Shown piece after piece: positions 14,579-50,962 of a stretch of DNA of 62,833 nucleotides. Origin of the DNA: a virus. Taxonomy: Duplodnaviria > Caudoviricetes. How positions within the stretch are numbered: the first letter of the stretch is position 1; the number at the start of each line of letters is the position of its first letter. The notes below the pieces were generated by a model. That model ran no database searches, had not been told where the DNA came from, and saw only the letters and a program-made list of their open reading frames with translations. The stretch spans positions 1 to 62,833 of the IMG/VR virus record IMGVR_UViG_3300006752_000028; one strand, 5' to 3'. The translations under genes were made by a program, and so were the position numbers.

Positions 14579-15490
14579 CTATTGTCTCAAAGTTTTTTCA
14601 ATTCTATAATCTGTATGTGTAAAGAAATCTGGTATAAATCTTGAATGCGTAGCTCTAATAGGGTTAATATCTAAACCGCCTCGTCTAGTATATAAACATG
14701 CTACCATTAAGTCGTCTGGTTGATAAGCATCCGTTAAATGTTTAAACACCATCTCGCATATCTCTTCATGAAAATGGCTAACAGTTCTATGAGATACTAT
14801 ATACTTAGCTATTGACTCAGGAGAAGGAATATTTTTACCATTCATTCTAATAAAAACATCTCCCCAATCTGGCTGATTAGTAACTCTACAGTTAGATCTT
14901 AGTAAGTTTGATTTTAACTTAATTTCTTTAGATTCTTTAACTACAGTTTCAGTTTCCAATTGAGAAGCATCAGATGAAAAAGCAGTAAAATCTATTAAGT
15001 CTAAATCTGCTATATCTCCTAGATCTTGATACCCTTCAAATGATAATGCTTTACCGTCATCTATATCACTATAGAAACTTACAGTCGTACTTGTTTCTAA
15101 TAATTTATCTAAGTCTTCTTTAACTTTAGCTTCTATCACAGCCATACAATCTGCTGCACAGTCTCCTAATCTAGTCATATTGAAAGAATTTAAATATAAC
15201 TTAATAGATTTAGATTCTACGTGAAATTCTGAATTGGAAGGACAGACTATTTTTAACATACCGGCTACAGGTTGACCTTTAGTTGTAATAGCTGATACTT
15301 CATAACAATTCCAAGTATCTACTCCTACAAAGCTTTTATCAGTTAATCCGTATCCTTCTCTGTTTAAATACCTTGGTACCTTAACTAGTAATTCAGGAGC
15401 GTAAGTATCTTTATACCCGTCTCCTCCTACTTTACCTAAATGTTTAGACGCTATGTCTACTACTGCTTGATAATTTTTTACTTCTGCCAT
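14579..15490 (-). CDS. queF: NADPH-dependent preQ0 reductase, bimodular (type II) QueF
   Basis: DTWNCYEVS, VESKSIKLYLNSFN, LLRSNCRVTNQPDWG, FHEEICE, YTRRGGLDINP. Confidence 0.95.
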   Translation of the reverse strand: MAEVKNYQAVVDIASKHLGKVGGDGYKDTYAPELLVKVPRYLNREGYGLTDKSFVGVDTWNCYEVSAITTKGQPVAGMLKIVCPSNSEFHVESKSIKLYLNSFNMTRLGDCAADCMAVIEAKVKEDLDKLLETSTTVSFYSDIDDGKALSFEGYQDLGDIADLDLIDFTAFSSDASQLETETVVKESKEIKLKSNLLRSNCRVTNQPDWGDVFIRMNGKNIPSPESIAKYIVSHRTVSHFHEEICEMVFKHLTDAYQPDDLMVACLYTRRGGLDINPIRATHSRFIPDFFTHTDYRIEKTLRQ

Positions 15491-16599: not shown

Positions 16600-16628
16600 A
16601 ATATAAGAAAAAAAATGTTATAAACCAA
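16600..16628 (-). promoter_or_regulatory. Promoter TTG-N20-TATATT
   Basis: Consensus motif. Confidence 0.7.
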
Positions 16629-17160
16629 ATACTTTCTTTAGAAATATAGTCCACATATATAATGATCTATCTTTAAATACCCCCCACATTTCTTCTTCTG
16701 TAATGTTAAAAGCATTGAATCTTTCTTCTGCTAGTATCTTACCTTCATCTACCCCTGCATCAACTTTATGAAGAACACATCCCATAACTGGGTATTTTCC
16801 TTCAAATGCTCTAATCTGTGGATCTTTTCCTTTAAGTTCTGGGTATTCAGTTATAAGACCTGGATGTCCGTTAAAGATAGAGAACTTTTCGCATACTTCT
16901 TTCGGCATAATACGTAACCAACCATGTAAGGTAATTATTGCTTCCGGAAAATATACTAGTATTTCTTCATAATCCTCTAAAGTAGGTTTATTATTTAAAG
17001 TGAAAAAACCATTTTCTACTATTCTAGGATCTATCTCTCTAAGTCTTTCAGGTCTCTCGTTAGTATAAATTCTATCAGGCCATTTACCAAGTGACTTAGC
17101 TAAATCAGCTATCTCACTACCAGTCTGACTAAAGAATGCTATCCAAGGTTTAGTTGCCAT
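16618..17160 (-). CDS. dpdN: PurN-like formyltransferase (DpdN-like, preQ1 formylation)
   Basis: FFSQTGS, LHGWLRI, NGHPG, HKVDAGVDEGKI; adjacent to DpdA-like gene. Confidence 0.75.
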   Translation of the reverse strand: MATKPWIAFFSQTGSEIADLAKSLGKWPDRIYTNERPERLREIDPRIVENGFFTLNNKPTLEDYEEILVYFPEAIITLHGWLRIMPKEVCEKFSIFNGHPGLITEYPELKGKDPQIRAFEGKYPVMGCVLHKVDAGVDEGKILAEERFNAFNITEEEMWGVFKDRSLYMWTIFLKKVFGL

Positions 17161-17953
17161 TCGTAAACCATTTAAATTTCTGTATATTGTTTTTAATCGT
17201 TCCTAATTGCTTCATATCAATATCTGAGTTTATTAGTTCGAATAGTTTTTGTCTTTCTTTAGACCAAAGTCCATCTGAACCATATGTTATACCTTTTATT
17301 CCGTGAACAACAGGGTTAGATGTATCTAGTGAATAAATCCAATCATAATCTGAATGCTTGTAGAAGCTAAATTCTTGAGGTAGCCCACAACCTAGTAAAT
17401 GATGAGGTTTATGTTTATTAATTATACCGTCTTTAAGTAAATCTCCCAGTAACTTAACACGTCCTAGCATCCAACTAACATACTTGTTAGCATGAGGTAC
17501 AGAAGTGCTGTAATACGAATAATCAAATGATATAGCTATCATATCTACATCTGCTGATTTATTCATATAGTTATAGCAATCTACTATTTCATCATAAGTC
17601 TTACCTTGAACTACTCCTATCTTTCCACTTCCTTCGTATCCAAGACCTTTATTATTCCAATCTTCCATTTGATCGCAAGTTTTAGTAGCGTCTTCTAAAG
17701 CATCAGGAACAATGTACCATGAAGGTCTAAAGTCTTTTACCCATTTATCAAACTTCGCAGCATCAAAAGCTTCTTCTAATTCGAAAATAGAGTTATCTAG
17801 TATAATCTCTCTACCTTTGTCTCTAGCTCTTTTAAATTGATTGAGGTATGCTTCATCTTCCTCAAATAAATGAACTAAAGCATAATCATAATCAGTAAGT
17901 TTTTGAACTTCTTCAAATACCTCTTTGGGACTTTCGTGTGCTATTTTTATCAT
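17150..17953 (-). CDS. dpdA: TGT-fold DpdA-like 7-deazaguanine insertion enzyme (probably DpdA3-type)
   Basis: IILDNSIFE, IVPD, IGVVQG, HHLLG, SLDTS motifs of TGT/DpdA barrel; context among que genes. Confidence 0.75.
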   Translation of the reverse strand: MIKIAHESPKEVFEEVQKLTDYDYALVHLFEEDEAYLNQFKRARDKGREIILDNSIFELEEAFDAAKFDKWVKDFRPSWYIVPDALEDATKTCDQMEDWNNKGLGYEGSGKIGVVQGKTYDEIVDCYNYMNKSADVDMIAISFDYSYYSTSVPHANKYVSWMLGRVKLLGDLLKDGIINKHKPHHLLGCGLPQEFSFYKHSDYDWIYSLDTSNPVVHGIKGITYGSDGLWSKERQKLFELINSDIDMKQLGTIKNNIQKFKWFTNGN

Positions 17954-18165
17954 ATATTACTATCTAAATTTGAATCGTCTAATTGACTTAAGTCTGGTTG
18001 TAAGCTAGTTAATTCTTCTGAAAGAGTAGCTATTGCTGCGTCTAATTGTTTTATTTGAGCAGCTTCTATTGCTTCTTCTACTGCTTGTTTAGCTACAGAT
18101 AATGGTACTACCTGCAGTTTACTTTCAAAATCAAAGAAAGCGTTTTCGTCTAGATTGATTGCCAT
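17950..18165 (-). CDS. Acidic hypothetical protein
   Basis: Operon-packed ORF. Confidence 0.7.
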   Translation of the reverse strand: MAINLDENAFFDFESKLQVVPLSVAKQAVEEAIEAAQIKQLDAAIATLSEELTSLQPDLSQLDDSNLDSNI

Positions 18166-18166
18166 A

Positions 18167-18688
18167 TTAAAAGAATTTTTTTAAGTTAGGTCTAAAGTAA
18201 TTAATACTTTTCATTACTTTTTTATCTCTTGTTCGATAAACAATGTACCGTCCCTCCTCGATTTTTTCAAAATGACAGGCCTCACCTTGTTCCTCAGCTC
18301 TTTTGCTGACACTGCGTATGGCCTCTTCTTCAGTTTTACAAGCTTTAGACATATTGCTCGCTTGTACTTCTTGATATGCTGGCCATATCTTATCCTTAAG
18401 GCCGTGTAACATAACACCGTTCCCAAGGGAAACATAAGCAATGTCGCACAAAGCATCCAAAACTTCCACAATGTCTCCGTTTTCGCAAGCCTCTCTATAC
18501 TCTTCGAGCTCTTCAAGGATGAAATCGTAAACGAACTGCCACTCTTTTTTTTCTGGTATGTTTGGTTCATAATTATTTGGTTTACTAAAAGTATCGTTAA
18601 ATATCTCAACTTCATCTACAAAAGGTACTGAAGGAGAAGATGGTACTTTATAATTCTCTTCTACAAAAAGTGATAACTGTTTTCCCAT
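18167..18688 (-). CDS. MazG-like/PRA-PH-family NTP pyrophosphohydrolase
   Basis: EELEEY..EVLDALCDIAYV..EVQASNMSK..KVMKS. Confidence 0.9.
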   Translation of the reverse strand: MGKQLSLFVEENYKVPSSPSVPFVDEVEIFNDTFSKPNNYEPNIPEKKEWQFVYDFILEELEEYREACENGDIVEVLDALCDIAYVSLGNGVMLHGLKDKIWPAYQEVQASNMSKACKTEEEAIRSVSKRAEEQGEACHFEKIEEGRYIVYRTRDKKVMKSINYFRPNLKKFF

Positions 18689-18689
18689 T

Positions 18690-18893
18690 TTAATATACTT
18701 TAATTATTCTAGATTCTGCAAGGCTTATAATCTTAAAACTAGTTTCACCTAACTCCTCTAGCATTTTATACGTTTTAGCTTCTGCTTCTGTTCCAGTCAT
18801 AGCATCTACTAAATATATTTCTTTTACTTTCTGTACTCTACCTCTATCGTTTTCTCTTTCGAACTGGGTAGTAACTTGCCAATAGTTTGTCAT
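18690..18893 (-). CDS. DUF4494-like protein
   Basis: GRVQKVKEIYLVDAMTGTEAEAK motif typical of the Bacteroidota family. Confidence 0.7.
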   Translation of the reverse strand: MTNYWQVTTQFERENDRGRVQKVKEIYLVDAMTGTEAEAKTYKMLEELGETSFKIISLAESRIIKVY

Positions 18894-18907: not shown

Positions 18908-19621
18908 TTAATGTTTACAAATACTTGCTAATTCTATATTCTTATAGAACTCTGCTTTTGCTGAATCTTCGTTTAAGAACGCTCCTGTTAGTTTAGCAGT
19001 TTGCATTGATGCTCCTCTATGCTTAACTCCTCTACAGCTAACACAGTTATGGGTAGCTGATATCATTACTGCAACTCCTAAATTACCTTCACATATCTTA
19101 TCTACTGCATTATGTATAGCTACAGTTAATTGTTCTTGAATAGCTCCTCTTCTACCGAATTGTTCTACTATCCTATTAAGTTTAGATAGTCCTACTACTT
19201 TTCCATCCTCTGAAGCTATATAAGCAATGCTTACATTACCACCGATTGTTTGGTGATGATGTGAACACATCGACTGAACTGGTATATTGCTTTCTTGTAC
19301 TATACCGTCGTATCCGTCTGATGGAAATGCTGTTATACGGTCTAGAGGGTTATACCTTCCGGCCCATAAATCATTAACATATGCTTTAGCTACTCTCATT
19401 GGGGTATCAGATGAATTAGGATCATCTTTATAATCACATCCTAACGCAGTTAAAAACTCTGCGTATGCTTTTGCTGCTCTTTCTATAATTACATGCTTCT
19501 CATGTTCTGTTAACCTTGCTTCAGGTCCTTCTAATTCTTGCTTTGCAGCTAATTGACTTGATATACCATTTGCATATCCTGCTTTTACTAATTCTGTTCC
19601 GTCTATAAACTTTTTAGGCAT
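18908..19621 (-). CDS. folE: GTP cyclohydrolase I
   Basis: DTPMRVAK, SMCSHH, VVGLSKLNR, IQEQLT, HNCVSCRGV. Confidence 0.97.
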   Translation of the reverse strand: MPKKFIDGTELVKAGYANGISSQLAAKQELEGPEARLTEHEKHVIIERAAKAYAEFLTALGCDYKDDPNSSDTPMRVAKAYVNDLWAGRYNPLDRITAFPSDGYDGIVQESNIPVQSMCSHHHQTIGGNVSIAYIASEDGKVVGLSKLNRIVEQFGRRGAIQEQLTVAIHNAVDKICEGNLGVAVMISATHNCVSCRGVKHRGASMQTAKLTGAFLNEDSAKAEFYKNIELASICKH

Positions 19622-19630
19622 AATATTTAA

Positions 19631-19658
19631 TTTGTTTTATTGAGGTTCTACGACTCAT
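19631..19658 (-). ncRNA. preQ1-I-like riboswitch aptamer in folE 5' UTR
   Basis: UGAG-UCGUAGAAC-CUCA-AUAAAACAAA: P1 stem, UCGYAG..AC loop, A-rich tail. Confidence 0.7.
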
Positions 19659-19668
19659 TTGTTAATAC

Positions 19669-19697
19669 AATATACGATTTTTAATTTAATTATCCAA
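19669..19697 (-). promoter_or_regulatory. Promoter TTG-N20-TATATT for folE operon
   Basis: Consensus motif immediately upstream of the aptamer. Confidence 0.75.
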
Positions 19698-20090
19698 ATA
19701 ATCTTGAATAGGTTTTGAATTTTCTTTTTCCCAAGGGTAGACTACCCAGCCGAAATCATCGTCTATTTCTTCTGCATAGTATTCTGGTTTTGCTTTTGAT
19801 GATGTTTTATAGTGTAGAGTAGCAAACTTAGGATTAAACATTTCGTCTCTCCACTTTAAAATTGTATCTCCACTATCTGCTATATCATCTATAATTAATA
19901 ACCTAGGATAGTGGTTACTTCTATACTCCATATATGGAATCTCAAATCGATGAGAATACATAATAGCGAGTATGGTACCTCCTCTGGGTATTCCTGTTAC
20001 ATAGTCTATCTCTCCTTTGCATTTTTCGTGTATAATATCTAAGAGTCTATTGATATCGTCCCACGTTAGAAAAACTTTTTTTACTGCCAT
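19686..20090 (-). CDS. Type I phosphoribosyltransferase (xanthine-guanine PRTase-like)
   Basis: GIPRGG, LLIIDDIADSGDT PRPP loop, WVVYPWE. Confidence 0.9.
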   Translation of the reverse strand: MAVKKVFLTWDDINRLLDIIHEKCKGEIDYVTGIPRGGTILAIMYSHRFEIPYMEYRSNHYPRLLIIDDIADSGDTILKWRDEMFNPKFATLHYKTSSKAKPEYYAEEIDDDFGWVVYPWEKENSKPIQDYLDN

Positions 20091-20254
20091 GTATGGTTCA
20101 TTACCCAGTTACCAGTAGAGTAATTTGCTATAGATTTACTACCTACCGATTGTAGCTTCTCTTTTAAGTGGTCCCATTGTTGAGGAGTAATATTGTAATG
20201 GTGAACTCCTTCTGTGAAGCCTCGTAACCATTCTATAAATTGTGATTCATTCAT
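20081..20254 (-). CDS. Hypothetical protein, 57 aa
   Basis: Not in track. MNESQFIEWLRGFTEGVHHYNITPQQWDHLKEKLQSV...; overlaps neighbours as in translational coupling. Confidence 0.7.
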   Translation of the reverse strand: MNESQFIEWLRGFTEGVHHYNITPQQWDHLKEKLQSVGSKSIANYSTGNWVMNHTWQ

Positions 20255-20381
20255 TTTCTATATAACTTTTTAATTTATCTATTAATACTAATACTTCGTC
20301 TGGTTCCATTGTTATAGCACAGCAAGTATTTATGTTTTCTGCTACTTCCTCTAATACCTCTAAAGCTTCATCTTTAGTCAT
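20247..20381 (-). CDS. Hypothetical protein, 44 aa
   Basis: Not in track. MTKDEALEVLEEVAENINTCCAITMEPDEVLVLIDKLKSYIENE; TAATG coupling to queE stop. Confidence 0.65.
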   Translation of the reverse strand: MTKDEALEVLEEVAENINTCCAITMEPDEVLVLIDKLKSYIENE

Positions 20382-21169
20382 TATACCTCTCTTTGATCTT
20401 CAAAAGCAATAATATGAGGTCTCCAAGTCATTCTATATCCGTTATCTCTAACCCAATCAAATAATACTGGGTATGATTTAAATAATGCTTCTCTAGAATC
20501 TCCTGCAGGCATAAACCATACTTTTTCAGATTTAACATCCAAAGTTTTTATACAGTCCATTATTTCAGCTAATGCTTCTTGATCTTTACCGTCCCATACT
20601 GGTTTAATATGGAAATCAGAATGATACTCTATTGACTGCTTAATTGCCTCATAATTAAGTCTAAATTTATTATGACGTTTTACCATTCTCTCATCTGTAA
20701 TTGCACCTTGAGGAGTTTCTACTCCAACGACTGGAACAGAATTAGAAAACTTAGGGCTAATAGATAACAAATTAATAGGGTAATCTGTGGGTAGGAAATG
20801 ACTACCTTCAGTTTCGATAGTAATAAAGATATTATTTTCATGTGCAAAATGTGTTAATTCGTTTACTAAAGCTGGATGCATAGTAGGAGAACCTCCTGTC
20901 AACATCATCTCTTTTATATGAGGATTCTTTTCGTACATCGCAATTATATCTTTAAAATTGAAGTCTCCTTTTTCCGGGTGTATACTTGTATACCAACTAT
21001 CACACCATCCTCCTTCTCCGAAGTAACATCTATGGGTACATCCTGTAGTTCTTATTACAACTGTTGGGTAACCTGCTCTTGAACCTTCTGATTGTACTGC
21101 TGTATATATTTCTACGATAGGTAGGTTTTTATCGTAATCTTCTATTCTCTTTAATTGCTTGTGTGCCAT
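20381..21169 (-). CDS. queE: 7-carboxy-7-deazaguanine synthase (radical SAM)
   Basis: EIYTAVQSEG, IRTTGCTHRC...WCDS, LTGGSP, IETEG, SISPK. Confidence 0.93.
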   Translation of the reverse strand: MAHKQLKRIEDYDKNLPIVEIYTAVQSEGSRAGYPTVVIRTTGCTHRCYFGEGGWCDSWYTSIHPEKGDFNFKDIIAMYEKNPHIKEMMLTGGSPTMHPALVNELTHFAHENNIFITIETEGSHFLPTDYPINLLSISPKFSNSVPVVGVETPQGAITDERMVKRHNKFRLNYEAIKQSIEYHSDFHIKPVWDGKDQEALAEIMDCIKTLDVKSEKVWFMPAGDSREALFKSYPVLFDWVRDNGYRMTWRPHIIAFEDQREV

Positions 21170-21189
21170 ATATTTTTATTATATTAATA

Positions 21190-21678
21190 CTACTCCTCGT
21201 AGATTGATGAATTTTTATCTGCTTCCCAACATTCAACTTTGGTAACTTTTACTCTACCTCCTCCAGTTAGTTCCATTCTTTTGTTAAAATGATCAAATAC
21301 TAATTTAGCACAAGATTCTGCTCCCATTGAATCCATAACCCTTAAAGCACATAGTCCTAATTCCTCCATGTATTGGAAAGTTTCTAATTGAGGATCATCT
21401 TTTTCTATTAGTAGAGTGTGATCCCACATATGGTTCATCCAATCTTTTAAACCATTACCGGGTGTTGGTTCAGCATCAGTTGATTTAAACCCTCCGTAAT
21501 CCATAATCCAATTCATCTCATCTAATTGATTTTCTTCTAGTGGTTCTTTAGATTCAAACCATACTTTAAATTTTAAAGCATATCCGTGAAGTAATTCACA
21601 ATGTGAGTGTGCAGCTTTATGCTGTCTTAGTGCTACTGAGTAATTATCAAATAGCTTTGTTGATTTGTATGTTCCCAT
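21190..21678 (-). CDS. queD: 6-carboxytetrahydropterin synthase
   Basis: HCELLHGY, MDYG, WDHTLL, AES.A, VECWE. Confidence 0.92.
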   Translation of the reverse strand: MGTYKSTKLFDNYSVALRQHKAAHSHCELLHGYALKFKVWFESKEPLEENQLDEMNWIMDYGGFKSTDAEPTPGNGLKDWMNHMWDHTLLIEKDDPQLETFQYMEELGLCALRVMDSMGAESCAKLVFDHFNKRMELTGGGRVKVTKVECWEADKNSSIYEE

Positions 21679-21688
21679 AATTTTTATT

Positions 21689-21946
21689 TTAAACTAATTC
21701 TTCTCCTATTCCTACTATTTCTGATAGTATAAGCAAAATAGCAGCTATATCTATACTCCACCATAATGCAGCATACCCTAATATACGGATACCTGATTTG
21801 ATGAAGCTAATTTGTTGATGTAATTTTGGATCTGGAATTTTATGATCATTGATCTTAATTCCTGTAAATTCTTTACCTGTAGAATGCGAACCTTCTCTGT
21901 CGTATAGTTCGTCTAGGATTTCTTTTTCTTCTTTTCTTTTTATCAT
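21689..21946 (-). CDS. Small membrane protein, first gene of the riboswitch-led queD operon
   Basis: Hydrophobic C-terminal hairpin ISFIKSGIRILG...LSEIVGIGEELV. Confidence 0.75.
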   Translation of the reverse strand: MIKRKEEKEILDELYDREGSHSTGKEFTGIKINDHKIPDPKLHQQISFIKSGIRILGYAALWWSIDIAAILLILSEIVGIGEELV

Positions 21947-21948
21947 AT

Positions 21949-21978
21949 TCGTGTTTTTATAGTGGTGCTACGACACTG
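21949..21978 (-). ncRNA. preQ1-I-like riboswitch aptamer upstream of small membrane gene-queD-queE
   Basis: AGUG-UCGUAGCAC-CACU-AUAAAAACACGA ending 2 nt before the AUG. Confidence 0.7.
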
Positions 21979-21997
21979 TTGTGCTATATATTTATAC

Positions 21998-22026
21998 AAT
22001 ATACGAAACTTTTATTTAAGAACCAA
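21998..22026 (-). promoter_or_regulatory. Promoter TTG-N20-TATATT for queD operon
   Basis: Consensus motif. Confidence 0.75.
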
Positions 22027-22704: not shown

Positions 22705-22848
22705 TTAAATATTACGGTGTCTTCTCATACCGTCCCATTTCACTTTTTTTGTTTTACTCAACATCCTTAATTTATCTATACGATTATTAAGTTTATTCCT
22801 TTCAGAATTTAATTGAGTATTTCCGTTTGTTTGATCACTAATTGCCAT
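22705..22848 (-). CDS. Small basic hypothetical protein, 47 aa
   Basis: Not in track. MAISDQTNGNTQLNSERNKLNNRIDKLRMLSKTKKVKWDGMRRHRNI; overlaps queC stop. Confidence 0.55.
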   Translation of the reverse strand: MAISDQTNGNTQLNSERNKLNNRIDKLRMLSKTKKVKWDGMRRHRNI

Positions 22849-23659
22849 ATCCTGCGAGTACTTTTTCAACATGAGCTTTTGCAACTTGGTAACTAACTAC
22901 ACCTGTTTCATCAGCATATCCAACAGGATCAGGTCTACCTAATTTAATAAAAGCCTCAATACGTTCTACTGATGAAGCTGATTTATAATCACTATACCAT
23001 TCCCAAGCATTTGCTTCAGGTCTGCTGTAAACTTTCATTGGTTTATAAGAGGTATTTGTTCTTCTATACACCTCGTCAAAGTCTAAATCTAGTACCTCAC
23101 ATAAATTTAATCCATCTTGTAAGATACCAAACTTATCAGTATCTAAATAAGGAGTAAAGTAACCTACTCTATCAGCATCCCAATTCCCCATTCTAAAAGC
23201 TGCATCATCTGCATCTCTAAATTCCTGTCTGCAATCAGGGTAAACTGCATGATCACCAGCATGAATACCTAAAGCAATATCACAAACACCTTCTGTTTTA
23301 TTTGCTACAGATAATGCTACTGCTTGTGTAATTGAAGCAAACATTTTATTTCTATTAGGAACAACAGTTTCTTTCATATTCTCTTGCTCGTAATGTCCTT
23401 CTGGTACATCATCTCCGCCTTCTACTAAAGCTGAATCTAGTAAATCTACTAAACCATCTAATTTAATTTGACGATAATTTACTTTGTGACCTTTACTTGC
23501 AAGGTAATCAATTAATGATTGAGCTCTTTCTAGCTCTACTTTATGTTTTTGACCGTAGTCAAATGAGATACCTGTTACTGTATCATACTTCTCGATAGCT
23601 CTTAACAATAGGGTGCTGCTATCCATTCCACCACTTAAACTTACTACACAATGTGCCAT
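22838..23659 (-). CDS. queC: 7-cyano-7-deazaguanine synthase
   Basis: SLSGGMDS, FDYGQKH, TVVPNRN, YPDCR. Confidence 0.96.
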   Translation of the reverse strand: MAHCVVSLSGGMDSSTLLLRAIEKYDTVTGISFDYGQKHKVELERAQSLIDYLASKGHKVNYRQIKLDGLVDLLDSALVEGGDDVPEGHYEQENMKETVVPNRNKMFASITQAVALSVANKTEGVCDIALGIHAGDHAVYPDCRQEFRDADDAAFRMGNWDADRVGYFTPYLDTDKFGILQDGLNLCEVLDLDFDEVYRRTNTSYKPMKVYSRPEANAWEWYSDYKSASSVERIEAFIKLGRPDPVGYADETGVVSYQVAKAHVEKVLAGYGN

Positions 23660-50933: not shown

Positions 50934-50962
50934 AATATAAGCTAAATTTATTTATTCTCCAA
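50934..50962 (-). promoter_or_regulatory. Promoter TTG-N20-TATATT heading the GT/rSAM cluster
   Basis: Consensus motif. Confidence 0.6.

Follow-up and report, generated by a model that had tools for sequence, protein, structure and literature searches.

A candidate preQ1 class I-type leader element in the 7-deazaguanine DNA-modification cluster of phages related to Flavobacterium phage immuto

We analysed IMG/VR virus record IMGVR_UViG_3300006752_000028 (Duplodnaviria; Caudoviricetes) over its entire 62,833 nucleotides (nt), hereafter the window, which encodes a complete route from GTP through preQ1 to DNA. An initial annotation had read the leader of folE, the GTP cyclohydrolase I gene of this route, as a preQ1-I-type riboswitch. 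All the leader letters that it quoted are present in the window, read on the minus strand, where the folE leader runs 5′ to 3′ as box TCGTATATT-GUAUUAACAAA-UGAG-UCGUAGAAC-CUCA-AUAAAACAAA-UUAAAUAUU-AUG. The range concerned, 19622-19697, consists of a 64-nt intergenic spacer and the final codons of the upstream phosphoribosyltransferase open reading frame (ORF; 19686..20090), and the element sits in a short 5′ untranslated region behind a repeated promoter-like signal. A second element of the window, absent from the initial annotation, was located by a regular-expression (regex) scan and then a covariance model, R1, in front of the orf85-queD-queE unit. The features of the two leaders are as follows.

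19669..19677, minus strand: promoter-like box TCGTATATT of the folE unit (a sigma-70-type scan also lists 19696..19669)
19631..19657, minus strand: putative aptamer copy 1, 27 nt; R1 covariance model, 44.9 bits
19657-19654 (UGAG) with 19644-19641 (CUCA), minus strand: P1 stem of copy 1, read from the sequence
19653-19645, minus strand: loop of copy 1, UCGUAGAAC, with its first U at 19653, the G11-equivalent at 19648 and the specificity C at 19645
19640-19631, minus strand: tail of copy 1, AUAAAACAAA, with the A-rich L3 at 19640-19635 and the proposed P2 3′ strand CAAA at 19634-19631
19621-19619, minus strand: folE start codon AUG, preceded by UUAAAUAUU
21998..22006, minus strand: promoter-like box TCGTATATT of the orf85-queD-queE unit, read from the sequence
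21977..21950, minus strand: putative aptamer copy 2, 28 nt; R1 covariance model, 47.8 bits
21977-21974 (AGUG) with 21964-21961 (CACU), minus strand: P1 stem of copy 2, read from the sequence
21973-21965, minus strand: loop of copy 2, UCGUAGCAC, read from the sequence
21960-21954 and 21953-21950, minus strand: tail of copy 2, AUAAAAACACG, with L3 AUAAAAA and the proposed P2 3′ strand CACG, then AAU-AUG

The tail C of copy 1 (19634) lies 13 nt from the A of the folE AUG, and that of copy 2 lies 7 nt from the A of the orf85 AUG, with queD and queE following orf85. The P2 strand of copy 1 is a proposed assignment, made by analogy with a solved class I aptamer. In the 62.8 kb window, R1 gave two strong matches, the two copies, with the next best at 14.8 bits; R1 was built from related phage leaders and includes both window copies, so that independent support comes from conservation and covariation elsewhere. 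A blastn search of copy 2 against isolated phages returned only noise, with a low-complexity filter that may mask the A-run. Compared with shuffles, the window leaders had no excess folding stability (z +1.36, +0.07 and +0.02). Folding energy is non-discriminating here, since two genuine preQ1-I leaders likewise gave no signal (z −0.12 and +0.44).

The promoter-like box, T-N-[G/T]-TATATT, occurs at 12 intergenic minus-strand sites in the window, 7-51 nt before ORF starts, with first bases at 50937, 45542, 42702, 33345, 31507, 22006, 19677, 16608, 14050, 10159, 7705 and 7477. It usually reads TTTT-TC[T/G]TATATT and thus commonly stands behind a T-run. It differs from the Bacteroidota −7 motif and is probably the phage's own promoter consensus; the promoter that the initial annotation placed before the folE element is accordingly plausible, the putative promoter box at 19677-19669 being one of the 12 copies. 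The two copies begin 11-20 nt after a box (20 nt for copy 2), and their leaders are the longest of the 12 box-led leaders, at 47 and 51 nt versus 7-36 nt, which fits an inserted module of about 28 nt. Many ordinary leaders, in the window and in relatives, carry (A)AGTTAT(A) right before the ATG, as in the ORFs after boxes 33345, 16608 and 10159. This motif, which may be part of the normal initiation region, is missing from both element-bearing leaders of the window.

We then considered conservation across 80 IMG/VR loci fetched by FolE homology alone (68-99% identity) and not by motif; one of them, L074, has no upstream sequence. The element was present in the folE leader at 44 of the 80 loci, and at 14 of the 80 a copy lay further upstream, within the 3-kb flank. 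Run over the window and the 80 loci, R1 gave 60 matches of 33-50 bits and nothing weaker up to E = 1. Where the folE leader lacks the element, it is short and the promoter box is retained; among such loci, a copy occurs elsewhere in the records of L030, L040 and L055 and in the contig of L065.

The stem varies in sequence while its pairing is retained. Across 35 distinct sequences, the four-base-pair P1 was paired in 139 of 140 cells (99.3%). Two pairs covary: the outer pair was AU in 14 sequences, GC in 10, UA in 10 and A.A in one; the third pair was UA in 23 and AU in 12; the other two pairs were invariant G-C. None of 500 shuffles reached the observed pairing, slid controls paired at 31-63%, and five stem versions were found among orthologous folE leaders. 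A fifth P1 pair was rejected, the flanking bases being A.A, C.A or U.U. The alignment of relatives' folE leaders that the initial annotation had proposed as a check thus came out positive, and, because compensatory changes keep pairing and not sequence, these data suggest that the element acts as RNA.

To place the element relative to genes, we used an IMG/VR pattern scan, which returned at least 116 stretches; its pattern fixes the loop and is therefore uninformative on loop variation, and a regex for the loop alone, with no further restriction, gave too many chance matches in coding DNA to be useful. Gene association was counted over 94 distinct instances among the matches listed, with the first downstream ORF distributed as follows.

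45 of 94: orf85 family
38 of 94: FolE
3 of 94: QueD
2 of 94: QueE
1 of 94: FolE2, a non-homologous isofunctional cyclohydrolase (PF02649, E 9.7e-66)
1 of 94: 197-amino-acid (aa) ORF of unknown function
4 of 94: no callable ORF, the instance lying at the locus end; two of these begin like FolE

Thus, among the matches listed, 89 of the 90 instances with a callable ORF precede FolE, FolE2, QueD, QueE or the orf85 family. The orf85 family is the commonest gene directly behind the element in this set, and queD comes next wherever gene order was mapped. The FolE2 case (L182:3064-4062, minus strand) represents a non-orthologous replacement of FolE in which the putative regulator was kept. In the remaining case (L155:9683-10276, plus strand), an element with loop UCGGAGCAC stands before the 197-aa ORF, which has a lipoprotein-like N-terminus and, as its sole Pfam match, a CarS-like domain below the cut-off.

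Again among the matches listed, the distance from the tail C to the AUG was 5-14 nt (mode 7) in 103 of 107 distinct instances, the other four being incomplete, whereas the distance from the promoter box to the element varied from 0 to 20 nt. No terminator-like site was found in 19000-20400. Because the spacing is fixed to the AUG and no terminator-like site lies downstream, the arrangement argues for control of translation initiation; transcription attenuation was rejected on the same two observations. Position also bears on a leader hairpin with some other role, in mRNA stability, as a processing site, as a start-site-proximal element or as a DNA-level operator. The closeness of the window copies to the promoter-like box and the weakness of the stem on its own are compatible with such a role. 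However, only two of the 12 box-led leaders of the window carry the element, both in the deazaguanine cluster, the compensatory changes preserve pairing rather than sequence, and the spacing is held to the AUG and not to the box. We regard this explanation as highly improbable.

The conserved positions of the element correspond to those of preQ1 class I aptamers. According to sections of PMC11625349, the specificity base of all class I types is a cytosine immediately upstream of the P1 3′ strand, with an A before it in type II; ligand recognition further involves the first base of the loop (U6), one A of the A-rich L3, and a G-C floor pair, the G of which contacts the aminomethyl group. In the phage element, the first loop base was U in all rows, the specificity C was invariant (35 of 35 distinct sequences) and the closing pair was G-C with G on the 5′ strand (35 of 35). 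The loop ended in AC in 107 of 107 distinct instances among the matches listed, an ending that is partly built into the regex, whereas the model-based set carries no such restriction. Every class I recognition feature named in these sections of PMC11625349 has a phage counterpart, and the ligand-contact positions singled out in the initial annotation (the first loop U, the last loop C, and the loop G with the tail C) all proved invariant.

Part of PMC7641330 describes the upper helix of the Thermoanaerobacter tengcongensis aptamer, in which canonical C9-G33 and G11-C30 pairs flank A10-A32 and G8-A31 and C7 forms a triple on G11-C30. Counting tail positions from the first C after the A-run, which MAFFT left ungapped, we found the C7-equivalent to be C in 30 of 32 sequences and U in two, G8 to be kept in 29 of 32, and A10 and G11 to be invariant. 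An A-run of at least three, and nearly always at least four, followed by C and then A31 was present in 32 of 32. The conservation of C7, G8 and A31 fits the C7-G11-C30 triple and the G8-A31 pair of that structure, and an H-type pseudoknot is consistent with the data. After C30, the tail reads A-A-A, A-C-G and similar; it has no AGG, and P2 thus contains no Shine-Dalgarno bases. An alternative P2 register (A10 bulged; C7-G33, G8-C32, U9-A31) fits the orf85-type tail and was rejected, as it is not kept in ACAG loop variants.

These features also bear on the proposal that the element is a translational operator for a phage protein, such as orf85, the DUF4494 protein or another cluster product, with a coincidental likeness to preQ1-I. 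A short hairpin with a conserved loop adjoining the AUG is the usual form of such operators, small proteins are co-encoded (orf85 in 45 of 94 instances among the matches listed, and DUF4494 after folE), and the pseudoknot is a putative one. Nevertheless, all class I ligand-contact positions are conserved together, including the A-run and the tail C-A outside the hairpin; Flavobacterium phage immuto has a folE copy and none was found before its queD-queE unit; and the element precedes FolE, FolE2, QueD and QueE in different genomes. We therefore judge a protein operator to be quite improbable. The element is, with good probability and on the strength of sequence comparison, a phage-specific, type-II-like variant of preQ1-I that switches translation off, and the riboswitch reading of the initial annotation has gained comparative support.

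Several observations weigh against a preQ1-I variant of this kind. The Rfam preQ1-I model (RF00522, gathering cut-off 39 bits), a search proposed in the initial annotation, was negative at both copies, with no match at E ≤ 10 over stretches of 301 and 91 nt; in whole immuto its best match, 14.5 bits, lay elsewhere, and immuto's copy was missed. The stem has four pairs, versus five in the Rfam consensus and in five of five genuine examples. One relative, L010, has a mismatched A.A at the outer stem pair, and the cell counts overstate the number of independent events because the sequences are related. In the pseudoknot, G11 and C30 never vary and are thus uninformative on pairing, and N9-N33 was pairable in 22 of 32 sequences versus 19.2 ± 2.0 in shuffles, 609 of 5000 shuffles reaching the observed value. 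Finally, Vibrio phage VH7D, Pseudomonas phage pf16 and record G315 carry QueF, the preQ0-to-preQ1 reductase, without a copy. By base, C9 faced G33 in 3 of 3 sequences, G9 faced U33 in 1 of 1, and A9 was paired in 1 of 5. The letters of the compensatory U-A pseudoknot pair proposed in the initial annotation are present in the folE copy, with U.G at this position in copy 2; as covariation, the N9-N33 pair was not significant.

The Rfam result can be understood from the model itself. The RF00522 consensus has a five-base-pair stem, a 12-nt loop ending in UC (type I) and a CUAAGG tail, whereas the phage element has four base pairs, a 9-nt loop, AC and no Shine-Dalgarno letters; RF00522 misses the element because consensus stem, loop and tail differ. 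It gave no gathering-score match in the whole window and, over the whole record, a best match of 10.5 bits elsewhere than at the copies; no canonical match was found in immuto, Cellulophaga phage phiST, VH7D or pf16. Five genuine RF00522 riboswitches (L218-L222), taken from four of 151 Pseudomonadota genomes, scored 43-57 bits and had CUAAGG or CUAGG tails. R1 found all five at the correct site and strand with only 7.6-11.1 bits, among 23 matches in 15 kb. The element shares the preQ1-I architecture and is not an RF00522 member by the family model. Permissive Rfam matches around the copies (WT1-AS_2, E 3.6; DUF805 RNA, 11.3 bits, E 7; CrcZ, E 5.5) were dismissed as noise. The DUF805 RNA match (RF03081) covers 21938-21981 on the minus strand, at copy 2, and the consensus of that RNA likewise has a short GUG/CAC hairpin with an A-run behind it; DUF805 is not mentioned in the main text of PMC5737381.

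On the minus strand, coding sequence makes up 94% of the window. Gene order on this strand is ribonucleotide reductase, thioredoxin, orf99, QueC, a phrog_1574 protein, the orf85 unit and the folE unit; beyond the DpdN-like gene, on the same strand, lie a kinase-like protein, a nuclease and QueF. The genes of the cluster are listed here.

22838-23659, minus strand: QueC (PF06508, E 1.3e-36); pathway gene with no element in front
19686..21946, minus strand: unit behind copy 2 (Pfam)
21689-21946, minus strand: orf85, 85 aa with a hydrophobic C-terminal half; virus-only family (Atlas)
21190-21678, minus strand: QueD (Pfam)
20381-21169, minus strand: QueE (Pfam)
20081-20254, minus strand: orf57
19686-20090, minus strand: phosphoribosyltransferase-domain protein, 134 aa (Pfam)
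18908..19621, minus strand: folE, GTP cyclohydrolase I (Pfam PF01227, E 1.4e-42); first cistron behind copy 1
16618..18893, minus strand: remaining genes of the folE unit, as far as the next box at 16608 (Pfam, PHROGs)
18690-18893, minus strand: short DUF4494 protein (Pfam/PHROGs)
18167-18688, minus strand: MazG-like pyrophosphohydrolase (Pfam/PHROGs)
17950-18165, minus strand: orf71
17150-17953, minus strand: DpdA, 267 aa, 73% identity to immuto DpdA
16618-17160, minus strand: DpdN-like formyltransferase, 180 aa, 51% identity to immuto DpdN
14579-15490, minus strand: QueF (PF14819 and PF14489); pathway gene with no element in front

The orf85 protein had no Pfam or PHROG match. The operon labels folE-MazG-dpdA-dpdN given in the initial annotation hold by Pfam, PHROGs and the two immuto identities, and the genes of the folE unit are presumably read as a single transcript. 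Given these protein matches and 74% DNA identity over the cluster, the window represents a relative of immuto. According to passages of Cui et al., the dG of immuto is replaced by formyl-dPreQ1 and DpdN is the proposed formylase. The phosphoribosyltransferase, DUF4494 and MazG-like genes are kept within the deazaguanine cluster of these phages, and those passages of Cui et al. describe no roles for the three proteins.

Among isolated phages, immuto, with its formyl-preQ1 DNA, carries one copy, before folE (R1, 47.3 bits). The whole genome of phiST, a reported dDG carrier, has no copy. QueF was present in seven of the seven element-positive records examined and in one of five FolE-positive, element-free records, but in none of the three of these that are 98-100% complete. 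The five element-free records are these.

G314: 100% complete, QueC present, QueF absent
G316: 100% complete, QueC absent, QueF absent
G317: 98% complete, QueC absent, QueF absent
G312: 83% complete, QueC absent, QueF absent
G315: 58% complete, QueC absent, QueF present

No copy was found in G310 or G318 either. The element implies a preQ1-making phage, and the converse fails: making preQ1 needs no such element, because VH7D, pf16 and G315 have QueF without a copy. In L161 (5301-9368), the element is accompanied by DpdA and QueF, with no DpdN homologue between them at E ≤ 1e-6; about 2.7 kb of other sequence stands where relatives have DpdN, and this phage may carry a different preQ1 derivative.

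This distribution bears on the ligand. The same fold could bind another 7-deazapurine, namely preQ0, 7-carboxy-7-deazaguanine, or the preQ1 base with a formyl or methyl group added. PreQ0 is also a ligand of type II aptamers, several free bases arise along the pathway, and sequence alone does not discriminate among the ligands; in Cui et al., the DpdN substrate is left open between preQ1 and dPreQ1. By contrast, QueF accompanies the element in seven of seven records, and G314, the sole complete record with QueC and without QueF, has no copy. L161, a single example, combines the element with DpdA and QueF in the absence of a DpdN homologue, and the floor-pair G, the aminomethyl contact in the known structures covered by the relevant sections of PMC11625349, is invariant. 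A ligand other than preQ1 therefore seems unlikely.

In cellular genomes, the commonest form of the motif was found at eight places in 185,579 species genomes. Seven were rejected as chance matches, with at most three stem pairs and without que genes in the neighbourhood. The eighth, L206 (NYWG01000135.1, 5922 nt), carries orf85-queD-queE-phosphoribosyltransferase-folE with both elements and is assigned to a Verrucomicrobiales metagenome-assembled genome; it resembles phage sequence that was binned with a bacterial genome. R1 and RF00522 found nothing in 151 sampled genomes from the class of one Bacteroidota genome, and R1 found nothing in 151 genomes of the Bacteroidota phylum. These large searches were weakly sensitive, scoring 38-47 of the hundreds to thousands of first-look candidates per genome, and their positive control, G158, was run in the laxer small-search regime.

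From these observations, we infer a single mechanism, including which ligand is bound, that a pseudoknot forms, that the switch turns expression off and that control acts on translation. Both leaders would form a miniature, type-II-like aptamer of preQ1 class I with an H-type pseudoknot fold. As long as no ligand is bound, the four-base-pair stem would be barely stable and the A-rich leader open, allowing ribosomes to start on folE and on orf85, then queD and queE. As a free 7-deazaguanine base from the phage pathway, most likely preQ1, builds up, it would pair with the last C of the loop, sit stacked on the closing G-C pair and have the loop-G/tail-C pair as its cap, with the A-run docking in the stem minor groove. 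The folded knot would end a short way upstream of the AUG (2-11 nt, in most cases 4, measured from N33) and would deny the 30S subunit access to a message lacking a Shine-Dalgarno sequence. The predicted outcome is end-product feedback on GTP cyclohydrolase I and on the QueD/QueE unit, in a pathway that would feed DpdA the base replacing G in phage DNA. Bacteroidota, the hosts, rarely use Shine-Dalgarno pairing and rely on A-rich unstructured leaders. A mechanism free of Shine-Dalgarno sequestration is plausible because, in a type I member described in part of PMC11625349, pseudoknot formation outweighed such sequestration. An RNA sensor thus probably lets the phage gauge the size of its own modified-base pool.

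We compared the element with known preQ1-I types. It shares with type II (T. tengcongensis, Bacillus subtilis), as described in parts of PMC11625349 and PMC7641330 rather than from aligned sequences, a hairpin followed by an A-rich tail in which a C is conserved, a loop that starts with U then C and not UU and ends in AC, an A-G within the loop with the G able to pair with the tail C, conserved G8 and A31, a closing G-C floor, and a place in a preQ1 biosynthesis leader adjoining the start codon. It differs in having four P1 pairs rather than five, an L3 of 6-7 nt, an L2 one base shorter than the U12-C15 stretch of T. tengcongensis, a total length of 27-28 nt, a P2 without Shine-Dalgarno letters and no RF00522 match, in being found in phage contigs only, and in its predicted control of a DNA-modification pathway, not tRNA queuosine. 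With type I (RF00522), it shares the hairpin and AUAAAAA..C tail and a G-UUCG / G-UCG junction, whereas in type I the loop has 12 nt and ends in UC, a CUAAGG tail buries the Shine-Dalgarno sequence, and two ligands are bound according to the sections of PMC11625349 used here.

Riboswitches are rarely found in phage genomes, as stated in part of PMC5473149; those known include the glutamine riboswitch in cyanophages and pelagiphages and the c-di-GMP-I riboswitch in Clostridioides difficile prophages (PMC5473149 and PMC9004378, in part). These cases have in common with the present element that a virus carries a metabolite-sensing RNA. As far as those sources go, they are ordinary members of bacterial families that standard models detect, whereas the preQ1-like element is divergent, went undetected in the cellular genomes searched, and would regulate the phage's own DNA hypermodification. 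In the literature on preQ1 and phage riboswitches, 7-deazaguanine and DpdA, we found no description of the element, although an unindexed mention is possible. The word "riboswitch" is absent from Hutinet 2019 and Cui 2023, PMC4342423 merely cites a preQ1 riboswitch review, and no paper combining riboswitches with Cellulophaga or Flavobacterium phages was found.

Overall, we lean towards viewing the element as a fourth, virus-only preQ1-I type and the smallest natural metabolite-sensing aptamer (27-28 nt), a Shine-Dalgarno-free, ligand-locked pseudoknot lying 2-11 nt before the AUG, with which phages of Flavobacteriia, often using two copies, would meter free preQ1 for complete G replacement. 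The element is widespread in one phage group (at least 116 IMG/VR stretches) and invisible to the standard model, and it links the riboswitch and phage DNA-modification fields, which have so far been separate. If this reading is true, the smallest known natural aptamer for a well-studied ligand gets smaller, and riboswitch control would be known for the first time in a DNA hypermodification and anti-restriction pathway.

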